This document shows, one piece after another, positions 29,863 through 48,698 of a stretch of 64,000 nt of DNA. Source of the stretch: Eledone cirrhosa. Its lineage: Eukaryota. The number at the start of each line of letters is the position of its first letter. The first letter of the stretch is position 1. The notes beneath the pieces were generated by a model that saw only the letters and a list, made by a program, of their open reading frames with translations, was not told the DNA's origin and made no database searches. The position numbers and the translations under genes are program-made. Location of the stretch: assembly GCA_964016885.1 (NCBI GenBank), contig OZ024743.1, positions 342,240,001 through 342,304,000 of the forward strand, read 5' to 3'.

Positions 29863-30855
29863 GAAAAGTGTAAGTTTCTACACAAAACGAAGGTTATAGA
29901 GAAAATTGAGGTTGGTAATGGCACATGGAATATATAAGAGAAAGAATACTTTTTTGTGAGAAAACATATAATTTTATAAGGTAAGGAAATAATAAAGGGT
30001 ATAAAAAATGACCGGTTTCGATGGCTCTGCAAAAGCCATCTTTTCAAATGTTGATTAATATTAAGAAAAATTAATAATAAGAAAAGTTAAAATTTGAGAT
30101 TTGAAAATTCAAGTATAAAATTCAGTGTAGGATTTCATAGTATTTTTCATCTTGGTAGCAGCAAGTTGACTGCTGTGTGCCTTTCTGGTAGTGAGTGAGG
30201 AGTTATTTGGGGGAGTGGGTTATTTTATAAAGGTCAGATTTAGCAATGGCCAGATGGCCAGCTGCTGGTCAGTGAGGGGGTCGAAGCAATATACATACAT
30301 ATATCTCCCTGTGGTCGGTAGGAGAGGGGAGAGTGATAGAAAGGGATTTAGTGCACTTACACCTATATATACACACATAACCTCATCCACACACACATAC
30401 ATATACATATACATACATATATATATATATATATACATATACACACATACATACATACACACATAAATATGCATACACACACACACACACATATATACAC
30501 ATACACACACATATATATATATACACACACACATATATATACATACACATACATCCAGATACACACATACATACACACACACACACACACACATACATAC
30601 ACACACACACATATATATAGATACACACATACAAACACACACACACACATATATACACATACACACACATATATATACACACACACACACACACACATAC
30701 ACATACATACACCCACACACTTTTGCAGACCCATCGAAACCGGTCATTTTTTATACCCTTTATTATTTCCTTACCTTATAAAATTATGTTTTTTCACAAA
30801 AAAGTATTCTGTCTTTTATATATTCCATGTGCCATTACCAACCTCAATTTTCTCT
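29863..30855. mobile_element. Fold-back insertion (arms 29898-30034 and 30721-30855; tail 29863-29897)
   Basis: Inverted arms containing GAAACCGGTC; microsatellite flanks. Confidence 0.8.
30005..30052 (-). ncRNA. HHR with U3-A8 core (TTGAAAA)
   Basis: AACAT-TTGAAAA-GATGGC(TTTTGCAGA)GCCATC-GAA-ACCGGT-C|ATTTT. Confidence 0.7.
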
Positions 30856-31221
30856 CTCTCTCTCTCTCTCTCTCTCTCTCTCTCTCTCTCTCTCTCTCTC
30901 TCTCTCTAATATATATATATATATATATATATATATATATATATATATATATATATATATATATATATATATATATATATGTATATATATATATATATGT
31001 ATATATATAAAATTAAGTATGTGTGTGTGTAGGTGTGTCTGTGTATTACCTATAGGGGCCCACATTATACGACCGATTGTGTGTGTATCTCTCTATCTCT
31101 CTATCTCTCTCTCTTTCTCTCTATGTATATATATATATATATATATATATATATATATATATATAGAGAGAGAGAGAGAGAGAGACACACACACACACAC
31201 ATATATATATATATATATATA

Positions 31222-31355
31222 TCGAAGGAAGTGTGGTAAGGAACCAGATGGACCATAACACACCAGTGTACTCAATACTTAGGTTAGTAGAGTGGGTAAT
31301 AGGACAATGTTTAACCCGACGGCAGACTTCAAGCCGTTTCAACGGCTATTTCTAG
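31222..31355 (-). mobile_element. Fragment of the 5462 fold-back family
   Basis: CGAAGGAAGTGTGGTAAGGAACCAGATGGACC..; another copy at 33130-33278. Confidence 0.8.
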
Positions 31356-31724
31356 ATATATATTCTCAGCTTCAGGAGCCTTGGACAAGGATATATCAAG
31401 CAATTGATGTTGTATTTATATAGAATGTGTTCGATTCAGAAGTGTGCAATTCTGAACGAATGTATGGGTGTGATTGCTGCCTGGTGCTCGTATATGAAAT
31501 TTAAATATGTATGCATGGTTTATTAGAATATTAGAATATTAATTAGAATATTAAACTATTTAATTTTAATTCGTTAGCGGGTAGGAGCAACCGCGCGACC
31601 AAACGAGCTCATGGATGTTATCCAATCATCTTGCTCGTGGTCTACCTGTGGGTCTCCTACGATTACCTGGATGTATAAATCAAAGTCAGAATGAAATTTC
31701 TGGTGGTTATGGTTACATAAATTA

Positions 31725-31898
31725 CCGTATTTCCCGGCGTCGAAGACGCTACTCTTTTCCTAAGATAAGTCTCAAAAATCTACCGTGCGTCCTGGAGGTC
31801 GAAGGTTGTTTTTTTTTTTGTTTTTTTTTCAAGTTTTTGGTTGTCAAAATTAGGGTGCGTCCTCGAGGATGAAGCGTCTTCGCCGCCGGGAAATACGG
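31725..31898. mobile_element. Tc2/pogo-like MITE
   Basis: TA|CCGTATTTCCCGGCG..GAAGACGC and GCGTCTTC..CGCCGGGAAATACGG|TA terminal inverted repeats with TA target duplication. Confidence 0.85.
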
Positions 31899-32593
31899 TA
31901 TATTGATCCTGTCTATCATATGGTGAGGAAAATATCATTTCATTCTAAGGAGAAGACTATGCAGACAAATTTCAATAATATATTAGAAACTATATTTTAC
32001 CAAAATAGAAACTTCGAAACCCACATGAAAATACTTAAATAGATTATAACGTTCTGTTGGACAAAAAGGCACATACACTATCATATATGTATGTAATGGA
32101 ATTGAGCTTCGTTGGTTTCGATGTATGCAGAAGCTGATCGAGCCATGAATCAGCCTTCTCGTGAAATTAGTATGCAAGTAATTGGAAACCCCACAGGCAT
32201 TTATACCCTTAATATAATCCTCAGTGATTCAGCGGGAATGTGTGTGATAAGGCTGTTTTGTTCAATTGTAAGTACAGCCCGACCAACGTGCTTCCAGACG
32301 GTTTCTGTGTACCCAATTCCATTCACAATAATCAAGCGGTGCCTATAGCAAATGACACTTGTCATAATAGTAACAGTGTGGTAACGCACCCGGAACCATC
32401 TGATTGTCAATCAGACTTCTCAACAACGGAGCTATGCTGCATCCATTCATTCATACATTCGAACCCACGCACCTACATAGCGAATAGGCACACACACATA
32501 TTCACACATGCACACACACACACACACACACACACACATACACACACACACACACATATATATATATATATATATATATATATATATTGAAAT

Positions 32594-45876: not shown

Positions 45877-46171
45877 ATAATTATCTTATGTTGTTTATTA
45901 CACAACTAATAAGTTCTGTAGCCTACATAGAGCACTCTTTTTTCCTGTACCTTTCGGACGGAATTACTTCATTCATACATATATATAAATAAATATATAT
46001 ATATATAAATTCATATTCTACTTAGATATGTTGTCCCCTTTCTATTTAGAATATATATATATAAATATATATAAGAAGACGATCGACTTTCGTCAAATCG
46101 GACCGAGGGAACAATGTTTCCGTTGGTCTTTCCAATTGCTAATACTATCTATCGGTCGCAACTCCAGGTAG

Positions 46172-46291
46172 AAGGAGCAATGTGAAATAAAGTGTCTTGC
46201 TCAAGGACATAACGCATCGCCTGGTCCAGGAATCGAACTCACAACCTTATGATTGCGAATCCAATTCTCTAACCACTCAGCCACACGCCTT
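46172..46291 (-). mobile_element. tRNA-derived SINE head with CORE-like segment
   Basis: GTGGCTGAGTGGTTAG A-box, GAGTTCGATTCC B-box, TCCTTGAGCAAGACACTT. Confidence 0.75.
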
Positions 46292-46471
46292 CATATAAAT
46301 ATATATATATATATATATATATATATATACATATATATATATATATATATATTTATATATTTATATATATGTGTGTGTGTGTGTGTGTGTGTATGTGTGT
46401 GTGTGTGTGTGTGTGTGTGCGTGTGCGTGTGTGTGTGTGTGAGAAAAACCACAGACCCTCCATCTCAACTC

Positions 46472-46511
46472 TACTTTTGAAAAGCAGAAGAGCTGCGAAA
46501 CCGGTAAAGGA
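46472..46511 (+). ncRNA. Minimal HHR with U3-A8 core
   Basis: CTT-TTGAAAA-GCAG(AAGAG)CTGC-GAA-ACCGGT-A|AAG..AATAAA. Confidence 0.72.
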
Positions 46512-47151
46512 ACCAAATAAATATATATATTCTTTTAAAAATAAGACTCCAGTTGCATTTTCGATTTCATCTTTTTTTCTTTATACTTTCATTCGTGTAG
46601 AACACCTCGGTTATTTTTCATTTTGTAAAAAATCCTCACTTTCTAATATATATATATATATATATATTCTAAGTAGAAAGGGGTACAAAACTGAAACTTC
46701 GAAGTCTTGTCACTTTTCTACTTCGAAATACATTTCTACACGTATTCGTTTGTGTGAGCGTATATGAGGCGTGTGAGTAAGGGCGTTTTGGGTAAGTGTA
46801 AGAGAAAGTGTGTGAGCTAGATAGAAAGAGAGTGCGAAAGAAAGAAAGAAAGAAAGAAAGAAAGAAAGAAAGAAAGAAAGAAAGAAAGAAAGACGTGAGA
46901 GAATTTGCATATGTGGGATAATTTGTATATGTATGTATGTATGTATGAATGTATGTTTGTATGTATGTATGTGTGTATGTATGTTTGTATGAATGCATGT
47001 ATATGTGTGTGTTTGGATATATATATATATATATATATATATATTTATATATATATATATATATATATTTATATATATTTATATATATATATATATATAT
47101 ATATATATATATATATATATATATATATATATATATATATATATATATATA

Positions 47152-48698
47152 TACATTATGAAGAGAGAAGAAACATTTAGATATAATTAGTAATAAAATG
47201 TATCATACCTAAACTGCTCCTAAATTCCTCGACTACGTAGTTTCGTGGCATAAACAAAAACAATATATCATAAAGATATAGAGTCCCTGCGAGGTCTGCC
47301 AACTTATCAAGAGGATACCTCATTTTACTAGTCTCAAGAACGCGTCTACACGACGTGAGAAAGAATCCCAAAAGGCGGAGGGGGAGATAGTCACGCGATA
47401 TAACGGTCGAGAAACAGAGCTAAGCCTCTTATAACCACGAAGAAAATACCACGGAGGCGGAGGGGGTATTCATATCGAGGCCGCAGAAGAGGTGGTGAAG
47501 AAGGCGAGAAGTATGAGTAATGGAAGCTCTCCAGTTGTCCCCACACTTCAAAGATTGCTCGACCAGAGGGAGTTATTAACAATATATTTAGAAACACACA
47601 GATACATGCGGACACACACATATATACATGAATGCATCCGCACCCAACTATGAGTGAAGGGTGCCAACTTCACCGATGTTGCTCAATGAATGACTGGGAC
47701 AGACCAATTCAGTTGAACTAGACTGAACCAGTATCAGAGTTAAAAATACATTATGAAGAGAGAAGAAACATTTAGATATAATTAGTAATAAAATGTATCA
47801 TACCTAAACTGCTCCTAAATTCCTCGACTACGTAGTTTCGAGGCATAAACAAAAACAATATAATATAACAGTTTAGGTATGATACATTTTATTACTAATT
47901 ATATCTAAATGTTTCTTCTCTCTTCATAATGTATTTTTAACTCTGATACTGGTTCAGTCTAGTTCAACTGAATTGGTCTGTCCCAGTCATTCATTGAGCA
48001 ACATCGGTGAAGTTGGCACCCTTCACTCATAGTTGGGTGCGGATGCATTCATGTATATATGTGTGTGTCCGCATGTATATGTGTGTTTCTAAATATATTG
48101 TTAATAACTCCCTCTGGTCGAGCAATCTTTGAAGTGTGGGGACAACTGGAGAGCTTCCATTACTCATACTTCTCGCCTTCTTCACCACCTCTTCTGCGGC
48201 CTCGATATGAATACCCCCTCCGCCTCCGTGGTATTTTCTTCGTGGTTATAAGAGGCTTAGCTCTGTTTCTCGACCGTTATATCGCGTGACTATCTCCCCC
48301 TCCGCCTTTTGGGATTCTTTCTCACGTCGTGTAGACGCGTTCTTGAGACTAGTAAAATGAGGTATCCTCTTGATAAGTCGGCAAACCTCGCAGGGACTCT
48401 ATATCTTTATGATATATTGTTTTTGTTTATGCCACGAAACTACGTAGTCGAGGAATTTAGGAGCAGTTTAGGTATGATACATTTTATTACTAATTATATC
48501 TAAATGTTTCTTCTCTCTTCATAACGTATTTTTAACTCTGATACTGGTTCAGTCTAGTTCAACTGAATTGGTCTGTCCCAGTCATTCATTGAGCAACATC
48601 GGTGAAGTTGGCACCCTTAACTCATAGTTGGGTGCGGATGCATTCATGTATATATGTGTGTGTCCGCATGTATCTGTGTGTTTCTAAATATATTGTTA
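47152..48698. mobile_element. Fold-back of a non-coding 595-bp tandem unit carrying one HHR (retrozyme-like)
   Basis: CATTATGAAGAG at 47154 and 47749; CAGTTTAGGTATG at 47869 and 48464; arms 47152-47862 (-) and 47869-48698 (+) nearly identical; (TA)n flanks. Confidence 0.9.
48365..48454 (+). ncRNA. Type I HHR with U3-A8 core (mirror copy 47226-47315 on minus)
   Basis: TCCTC-TTGATAA-GT(C/T)GGCA..TGCCAC-GAA-ACTACGTAGT-C|GAGGA. Confidence 0.82.

Follow-up and report, generated by a model that had tools for sequence, protein, structure and literature searches.

Candidate type I hammerheads with a U3-A8 core, probably of Penelope-like origin, in a 64-kb stretch of the Eledone cirrhosa genome

In the stretch of 64,000 nucleotides from Eledone cirrhosa analysed here (in the following, the window), four places were listed by a first-pass annotation as hammerhead ribozymes (HHR) in which the core pair C3-G8 is replaced by U3-A8. 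This raises the question whether these motifs are more than chance folds, from which elements they derive, and whether U3-A8 is an inherited state of their families. The premise that positions 3 and 8 form a Watson-Crick pair is sound, the C3-G8 pair being established in the available text of PMC3884650. By direct reading and parsing, a type I hammerhead with a palindromic helix III and the core UUGA(A/U)AA was identified at all four cited places. The coordinates under which they had been listed correspond to the outer limits of helix I.

For family A, the hammerhead is located at 30005..30052 on the minus strand, with the core TTGAAAA at 30047-30041, GAAA at 30019-30016 and the palindrome ACCGGT; the cut is predicted 3' of C17 (30010). 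Its helix II comprises 9 bp, one G-U among them. The surrounding element arm (29862..30721, minus strand; limits approximate, read by eye) holds no ORF remnant, contains a TG-rich microsatellite stretch and is adjoined at its 3' end by (TA)n. Of the hammerhead, an inverted, 5'-truncated second arm at 30722..30850 (plus strand; 95% identity over 119 nt) retains the 3' half alone, from loop II onward.

Family B was found in two dispersed copies with an identical 5' start. Copy 1 (B1) is an element of about 195 nt at 46447..46640 on the plus strand, with microsatellites on both sides; its hammerhead (46472..46511, plus strand) carries the core TTGAAAA at 46477-46483, ACCGGT, a helix II of 4 bp and A17 at 46506. 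Copy 2 (B2; 25706..25889, minus strand) is 86% identical to copy 1, and its hammerhead (25830-25859, minus strand; A17 at 25830) has retained the U3-A8 core at 25859-25853, with helices I and II more decayed than in copy 1. A search of GTDB genomes gave no further copies of this family. The hammerhead of B2 (25830-25859) is absent from the first-pass annotation, as is a fourth family, D (25443-25479).

Family C is organized as two arms joined head-to-head at 47868/47869, each ending in (TA)n. The minus arm (47156..47868) begins with a half hammerhead (47868-47826); a full U3-A8 hammerhead at 47226..47315 (minus strand; core TTGATAA at 47310-47304, C17 at 47231) comes 595 nt further on. The plus arm (47869..48698) consists of one ORF-less unit of 595 nt and 235 nt of a second one, with one full hammerhead at 48365..48454 (plus strand; core TTGATAA at 48370-48376, C17 at 48449). 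Since the hammerheads at 47226 and 48365 lie in two arms of one insertion, the four cited sites amount to three data points. The arms differ by 3 substitutions in 656 nt, and judging by this identity of 99.5% the insertion is young. The repeated unit has a period of 595 nt, a GC content of 41% and one type I hammerhead; no long ORF was found in any of its six frames, and a comparison with plasmids gave no match. Its palindrome is ACTACGTAGT, and helix II comprises 2+4 bp with a bulge bearing a structured insert of 59 nt. In cofolding, the double hammerhead reaches the minimum energy, -59.7 kcal/mol, which is 13.7 below two monomers.

The hammerhead of family D is located at 25425..25500 on the plus strand, with the core TTGATAA at 25443-25449, a palindrome of 12 nt and C17 at 25479. 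In its best monomer fold, U3-U4-G5 is buried in a competing helix. Its architecture matches that of PLE (Penelope-like element) hammerheads of the Hydra clade. When it was aligned with eight Hydra-type PLE hammerheads of other animals, the 3-8 pair was C-G in eight and U-A in one, and 98.8% of the 81 cells were paired, a value equalled in 0 of 500 shuffles.

In all six copies, U3-A8 stands in an otherwise canonical core of the form N3-U4-G5-A6-N7-N8-A9 and G12-A13-A14-A15.1; these other bases were required by the scans described below, and their intactness is no evidence. Helix II is closed by G10.1-C11.1 in 6/6 copies and comprises 3 to 9 pairs, the cleavage triplet is N-U-H in 6/6, and the palindromes of the four families, taken over positions 15.2-16.2 with loop 3, are perfect (6, 6, 10 and 12 nt). 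Helix I is more variable, with 5 bp in C, a long helix after a first-position mismatch in D, 3 bp in B1, and in both A and B2 an unbroken run of 2 bp, followed in A by a C-U mismatch. The earlier description of U3-A8 hammerheads with paired stems holds in that the motifs are real, and has to be qualified for helix I, which is weak in A (2 pairs) and B1 (3 pairs).

In a first scan, positions 3 and 8 were left free, with a cut-off score of at least 8 and 100 block dinucleotide shuffles as a control. Twelve matches were obtained in the 64-kb window (five C3-G8, five U3-A8, one A-G and one G-G), compared to 0.74 matches overall and 0.06 U-A matches per shuffled window; B2, at 7.78, fell below the cut-off and is not counted. 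A pattern defined post hoc had 4 matches versus 0.05 in shuffles, and 4 were reached in 0/100 shuffles. A second scan, blind to helix III, yielded 15 matches, comprising seven C-G, six U-A, two C-A and no U-G. Single matches were dropped as chance: A3-G8 at 47826-47927, where an unrelated word adjoins a half hammerhead; G3-G8 at 2675-2805; C3-A8 at 39993-40023, which is without a helix III (0.12 expected); and U3-A8 at 7469-7799, with a gap of 310 nt and weak stems.

That the motifs arose as chance folds, TTGANAA being a frequent word in DNA that is AT-rich and repetitive, is extremely improbable. U-A cores were indeed 2 to 6 times commoner than C-G cores in shuffles, and the z-scores of single-strand folding are unremarkable (-0.06 for B1, 0.32 for B2). 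However, the six U-A matches of the second scan stand against 0.16 per window and a maximum of 2 among 300 shuffles, the motifs recur in repeated elements, and dimer-type hammerheads are expected to fold weakly as monomers, as do the canonical ones of the window. By the shuffle controls, chance is already largely refuted. The lack of any Rfam match at the gathering score might also be taken for chance folding; it extends over the whole 64 kb and includes the canonical PLE hammerheads, so that U3-A8 motifs are not alone in being overlooked. In the E-value mode of Rfam, D gave a weak match to Hammerhead_HH9 (18 bits versus 52, E 1.1) and B1 and C gave none; otherwise, only microsatellite and hairpin noise was obtained in 25300-30900 and 46300-48800. 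The warning that strict CUGANGA searches would be blind to these sites is supported: a model trained on C3-G8 cores misses A and B and ranks D 14th and the two C hammerheads 25th and 27th of 31 matches. Provided that the motifs cleave, descriptors restricted to C3-G8 would undercount the hammerheads of this genome, perhaps by a quarter of the families.

With a probability of about 0.8, the sites are type I hammerheads from the terminal repeats (pLTRs) of PLEs and from ORF-less derivatives of these, lying in microsatellites of an AT-rich animal genome; C3-G8 would have been replaced by U3-A8 in the donor elements, with cleavage as a dimer and insertion in trans by a PLE protein. A 5' inversion in the style of PLEs is present in A and C, in both cases head-to-head and with a 5'-truncated half hammerhead, a partial tandem is present in C, and microsatellite flanks were identified in 4/4 families. 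Inversions, partial tandems and microsatellite flanks form the insertion pattern described for PLEs in the available part of PMC8557442. The window also contains 11 clusters of PLE ORF remnants, several with a C3-G8 hammerhead of their own. For the U3-A8 families, tblastn with 125 queries, mostly Hydra-like, identified an own ORF remnant in none of four, and the link to PLEs is therefore by architecture and not by a linked protein. The nearest tblastn matches (28497-28676 and 49262-49666) were rejected as partner ORFs, belonging to neighbouring elements with their own C3-G8 hammerheads. Pfam gave a sub-threshold GIY-YIG match in 1 of 18 relevant ORFs of the window, and nothing for 4/4 Hydra-like proteins.

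In such donor elements, U3-A8 would stand in place of C3-G8 with Watson-Crick pairing kept in the active site; the conserved core, helix II, the NUH site and a self-complementary helix III segment are present. By comparison with published PLE hammerheads, two motifs of a tandem or read-through transcript would pair via the palindrome to form a double hammerhead, which, probably aided by a PLE protein, would cut 3' of position 17 and trim the element RNA. This RNA would be reverse-transcribed and inserted in trans by the PLE RT/GIY-YIG protein, giving rise to copies that are inverted, partially tandem or truncated at the 5' end. Those in the window are probably for the most part dead-on-arrival remnants, and selection would have operated in the donor elements. 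Compared to two monomers, the double hammerhead is slightly favoured for B1 (-1.7 kcal/mol) and not favoured for A (+0.9) and B2 (+4.3); for D, a model without the bulged helix I gave +12.3 kcal/mol. PLE hammerheads are known to cleave poorly in vitro, among Xenopus dimers 8 of the 9 that were tested showed no activity, and for one element the hammerhead was not needed for insertion in vitro.

The implied novelty of the variant does not survive comparison with the literature: PLE hammerheads with U3-A8, together with a matching descriptor, have been in print since 2014 (PMC4209133, Cervera and De la Pena 2014). The available text of that paper reports about 1,300 U3-A8 PLE hammerheads for Schistosoma mansoni and lists UUGAAAA (PLE-linked) and UUGAUAA cores. 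Several natural examples of U3-A8 covariation, stated to be active in vitro, are given in the accessible part of Perreault et al. 2011 (PMC3088659), where they are not tied to PLEs. As the variant has already been described in PLEs, the sites of the window are a new example and not a new kind; publications of 2011 and 2014 already cover the variant, its PLE link and the need for a descriptor of its own, and the known picture is unchanged. In the literature on octopus hammerhead ribozymes, as far as titles and the opening of abstracts indicate, none concerns the U3-A8 variant.

The S. mansoni PLEs (Cercyon), as presented in the consulted part of PMC4209133, resemble the families described here in type I topology, U3-A8, both core words, a short helix I and a palindromic helix III requiring a dimer. 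They also occur as single motifs or as opposite-strand pairs 100-700 bp apart, derived from truncated PLEs. Unlike the motifs of the window, Cercyon hammerheads carry an extra base after A9 and lack loop 3; here, 0/6 copies have an additional unpaired base between positions 9 and 10.1, the palindromes measure 6-12 nt, and no linked ORF was identified. The extra base is also missing from most of the Hydra-type hammerheads fetched and from some entries of PMC4209133, and is thus not universal.

Hydra-clade PLE hammerheads share with the sites of the window the lack of an extra base after A9, GT...AC closing of helix II, a helix III of the form ACAG...CTGT or ACT...AGT, and (TA)n flanks. The label is that used by Craig et al. 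2021 (PMC8557442) and was assigned to the fetched proteins by matching their RW, DKT and CxCx5C motifs to the available text, and not from a tree. From the loci L001-L016, L002 and L015 were omitted, being without downstream DNA, which left 14; of these, L006 lacked a core and L009 retained just a 3' half. The ORF-linked fetched loci were C3-G8 in 12/12 cases, whereas D combines U3-A8 with a palindrome of 12 nt and has no ORF beside it. Cores other than CUGANGA, obtained in 4/22 matches at the fetched loci, were likewise dropped as chance; among them was a weak TTGAAAA match at L001 (helix scores 2.5 and 2.5), antisense inside the ORF.

Family C also resembles metazoan non-LTR retrozymes (PMC7229834; bioRxiv 10.64898/2026.07.22.740005), which have been proposed to be non-autonomous PLE derivatives. 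Like these, it consists of ORF-less tandem units with one type I hammerhead each, and its 595 nt fall within the reported range of 51-972 bp; it differs in the U3-A8 core and the 59-nt insert in helix II. The bioRxiv paper requires of an active element two or more complete hammerheads in succession on the same strand; C has one complete hammerhead per strand, with an additional half on the minus arm, and falls outside this class. As a young natural tandem construct, C may serve for questions of PLE hammerhead function and of the trans mobilisation of ORF-less units.

As was implied earlier, U3-A8 is not sporadic in the families that offer two copies for comparison: it is carried by 2/2 dispersed B copies and 2/2 C arms. 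By comparison of these copies, U3-A8 was shown to be inherited and older than the insertion in B and C. The families had also been called unrelated, and the flanks of A, B, C and D are indeed dissimilar, with B1-B2 the only significant pair in 10 pairwise tests. A likeness of flanks between A and B1 (21 of 500) and A and C (17 of 500) fails after allowing for the 10 tests; when 11 Hydra flanks were compared with those of A, B1, C and D, the best of 44 tests stood at 3 of 200. However, short non-coding flanks diverge fast, so that separate ancestry is not proved by their dissimilarity, and nothing was learned from aligning A-D jointly with MAFFT. It is possible, though we lean against it, that all four families owe U3-A8 to one or two events in an ancestral PLE lineage of this genome, with no repeated independent compensation. 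TTGAAAA, a G-C closing pair and ACCGGT are common to A and B, and TTGATAA and GT...AC closing pairs to C and D. Against this stand the Hydra-type architecture of D, whose ORF-linked relatives are C3-G8 at 12/12 loci, an ACCGGT-type hammerhead with C3-G8 at L008, and the third architecture of the S. mansoni variant; together these point to at least two origins. The association between positions 3 and 8 depends on this number, with Fisher p values of 0.0005 for four origins, 0.011 for two and 0.077, which is not significant, for one.

At the family level, judged by eye, 4 families are U-A, about 12 are C-G and none has a mismatched 3-8 pair, which makes selection on this pair plausible. It is unlikely that the ribozymes are relaxed or dead and that C to T and G to A were fixed by the mutation bias of an AT-rich genome, in elements for which cleavage has become dispensable and with pairing incidental. 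The two changes are both transitions that raise A+T, in DNA of 25-39% GC, a sporadic C3-A8 copy was found at 23696 (1/4 core-bearing copies of a C3-G8 family), and helix I of A is weak, B has A17 and D a competing fold; moreover, Naiad PLEs thrive without canonical hammerheads, according to the available text of PMC8557442. Neutral decay, however, predicts more single mismatches than doubles, while the families show 0 mismatched versus 4 doubles, and the insertion of C appears young, with an intact fold that coincides with the cofold minimum. Should the motifs cleave, the 3-8 pair would gain natural support in dimer-type hammerheads without the usual tertiary contacts.

A more far-reaching proposal, speculative and as a whole doubtful, is that U3-A8 is recurrent here, having re-evolved independently in about a quarter of the hammerhead families under AT mutation pressure and selection on the 3-8 pair. 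D would then be the first U3-A8 hammerhead of the Hydra type, and C a young U3-A8 retrozyme of 595 nt, in which cleavage would be supported by the structured insert of helix II and the natural half-plus-full tandem. U3-A8 families are 4 of about 16 in the window, compared to 0/12 ORF-linked Hydra-type loci elsewhere. The proposal further holds that U3 would co-select C17 so that a U3-A17 trap is avoided. For B, U3 could pair with A17, by analogy with the inhibitory C3-G17 pair described in the available text of PMC3884650; C17 is present in three of the four U3-A8 families.

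At all four sites cited by the first-pass annotation, UUGA(A/U)AA replaces CUGANGA in a type I hammerhead fold. The hammerhead of family A was located on the minus strand (core 30047-30041, C17 at 30010) and copy B1 of family B on the plus strand (core 46477-46483, A17 at 46506), both with the palindrome ACCGGT, while the two arms of family C carry the motif on the minus (core 47310-47304) and plus (core 48370-48376) strands, each with the palindrome ACTACGTAGT. G10.1-C11.1, GAAA, a perfect palindrome and an NUH site are present at each of these sites. The claim that the stems stay paired is weak for helix I of A and B, with only two contiguous pairs in A and three and two in B1 and B2. 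Scans with positions 3 and 8 left free added a second B copy, B2 (25830-25859, minus strand), and a fourth family, D (25443-25479, plus strand, with a 12-nt palindrome), so that the U-A set, at first four copies in three families, now numbers six copies in four families. When helix III was required, the scan gave 12 matches with a score of at least 8 (five C-G, five U-A, one A-G and one G-G), against 0.74 expected per window by chance, including 0.06 U-A (100 block shuffles). With helix III free, 15 matches were obtained (seven C-G, six U-A, two C-A and no U-G), the chance value for U-A being 0.16 per window and the maximum 2 (300 shuffles). The U3-A8 hammerhead motifs in the window are real.

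They add to an already published variant. U3-A8 covariation was described for a hammerhead of Penelope-like elements (PLEs) in S. mansoni by Cervera and De la Pena, where a descriptor for this covariation gave about 1,300 matches (PMC4209133); the supplement lists the cores UUGAAAA (PLE-linked) and UUGAUAA. Natural examples are also included in Perreault et al. (PMC3088659), where in vitro activity is cited.

It had been proposed that searches strict for C3-G8 would miss these motifs. This was borne out only partly: of the 31 matches to a model derived from 12 C3-G8 motifs, D was at rank 14 and C at ranks 25 and 27, and A and B were not among them, but Rfam at its gathering score missed the canonical hammerheads of the window too. 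About a dozen canonical C3-G8 families of PLE type lie in the 64 kb, none of them identified by Rfam at that score, for example at 6145-6173, 13350-13447, 15593-15658, 27302-27353, 33971-34043, 38001-38050, 45814-45878, 57122-57153 and 57993-58037. Inserts of 50-100 nt in helix II or loop II were seen at 52317-52460 (plus), 51805-51948 (minus), 33971-34043, 13350-13447 and 47231-47310, and such hammerheads would be missed by short-loop descriptors. In addition, the terminal repeat of a Hydra-like PLE at about 16874-19506 contains a hammerhead-like fold with the core CAGAAGA (U4 to A), at 16892-16948 (minus), 19432-19488 (plus) and 5376-5432 (plus), with a partial copy at 42771-42813 (plus). 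This core is present in all three full copies of the repeat; in the fold, helix II has a U-U mismatch at its base, helix III is genuine and not palindromic, and two copies were matched by the C3-G8 model (E 0.15 and 0.9). As an inherited core change, U4A may be less common than U3-A8.

Family C was identified as a single insertion, the two arms of which diverge from the junction 47868/47869 and differ by three substitutions in 656 nt. Each arm is a partial tandem of a 595-nt unit without an ORF, and both ends lie in (TA)n; the minus arm begins within loop II, leaving a half hammerhead 595 nt before the full one. Family A is laid out like C, with an inverted, 5'-truncated arm at 30722 that retains only the 3' half of the hammerhead. 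Two dispersed copies of the 195-nt B element share 86% identity and a common 5' start, and each lies between microsatellites. The PLE insertion pattern given in PMC8557442 consists of truncation at the 5' end, neighbouring copies in inverted orientation, partial tandems and the targeting of microsatellites. Since no ORF remnant belonging to any U3-A8 family was found by tblastn across the window (120 database proteins and five window fragments), the assignment of these elements to PLE insertions is based on their architecture. As a tandem, ORF-less unit with a hammerhead, family C resembles the non-LTR retrozymes, which are described as units of 51-972 bp and proposed to be PLE derivatives (PMC7229834; bioRxiv 10.64898/2026.07.22.740005).

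Both substitutions are present in both B copies and in both C arms, and the donor elements therefore had U3-A8. Sporadic decay does occur nearby: C3-A8 alone was found in one of four core-bearing copies of a C3-G8 family (23669-23696, minus strand; other copies at 48932, 51327 and 63088). By eye, the window holds four U-A families, about 12 C-G families (perhaps 10, because some are related) and none with a mismatched 3-8 pair. The corresponding association has p 0.0005 with four independent origins, 0.011 with two and 0.077 with one. The paired change had been noted in families taken to be independent and read as a sign of selection for catalysis, an interpretation that is supported in part. 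The flanks of A, B, C and D are indeed unrelated to one another, but A and B have the core, closing pair and palindrome in common, and C and D the core and closing pairs, so that independence was established for the families and not for the substitutions. At least two origins are likely, because D resembles the Hydra-type motifs in its architecture, while A and B are of the ACCGGT type, for which a C3-G8 representative is present in L008, one of the outside loci. That U3-A8 re-evolved repeatedly, driven by mutation pressure toward AT, in a quarter of the hammerhead families of this genome, with a young U3-A8 retrozyme among them, is a reading to which we give about one chance in four.

For comparison, 16 outside loci with Hydra-like proteins were fetched, 14 of which had downstream DNA. 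A hammerhead core lies 86-218 nt past the ORF match in 12 of these 14, and all 12 ORF-linked hammerheads are C3-G8; the share of U3-A8 in the window (4/16 vs 0/12) is not a significant excess (p 0.11). When D was aligned with eight of these motifs, its longer helix III being out of register, the 3-8 pair was C-G in the eight and U-A in the one, and 98.8% of 81 cells were paired, a value reached in none of 500 shuffles, although kinship can beat this control. A small hairpin at 25559-25576, 79 nt downstream of D, resembles one that in the fetched loci was seen by eye 3' of several hammerheads of Hydra type, from which it differs by a C-G to U-A change. The fetched loci are contigs from assemblies of bacterial genomes; besides coding for PLE proteins of Hydra-like type, these contigs contain hammerheads and microsatellites, and most likely they represent animal host DNA carried into the assemblies.

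In the monomers, helix III cannot form in A and B, and three to four pairs are possible in C and D. PLE hammerheads are described as pairing through the palindrome to a double hammerhead (PMC4209133). For C, this structure coincides with the cofold minimum and is more stable than two monomers by 13.7 kcal/mol; the gain is 1.7 kcal/mol for B1, and A, B2 and D show none in a cofold that omits bulged helix I, to the disadvantage of D. In the best monomer fold of D, U3-U4-G5 is buried. Position 17, the predicted cleavage site, is A in family B; U3 could pair with A17 there, as C3 does with the inhibitory G17 described in PMC3884650. For one PLE hammerhead, PMC11167929 reports that the protein of the element is needed for cleavage and that the motif is dispensable for insertion in vitro. 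In the donors, protein-assisted cleavage of the dimer would most likely trim the element RNA, and C is most likely the best candidate for activity among the U3-A8 families.

The window is AT-rich, with a GC content of 0.25-0.39 in most 2-kb blocks, and holds many microsatellites and retroelement remnants broken by stop codons. The tblastn search, for which the database proteins were retrieved starting from one window ORF, identified 11 clusters of PLE reverse transcriptase (RT) or GIY-YIG remnants. The database proteins contain the RW, DKT and CxCx5C motifs, given as features of the Hydra clade in PMC8557442. Long inverted repeats at 27265-29709, 32599-32865, 56553-56742, 57937-58351 and 58524-58841 are consistent with PLE 5' inversions, and close to the ends of several of them lie complete or half hammerheads. 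A frameshifted, GC-rich stretch (0.49-0.55) at about 10300-13227 (plus) had no Pfam match; its translations presumably resemble the RT and restriction-like endonuclease of a non-LTR retrotransposon. A mariner-type transposase remnant with a weak HTH_48 match and an inverted repeat of 86 nt lies at 36118-37026, and a repeat some 190 nt long, SINE-like in size, is dispersed in at least six copies (9603-9799, 35834-36023, 38228-38384, 38612-38723, 57281-57475 and 62832-63024).
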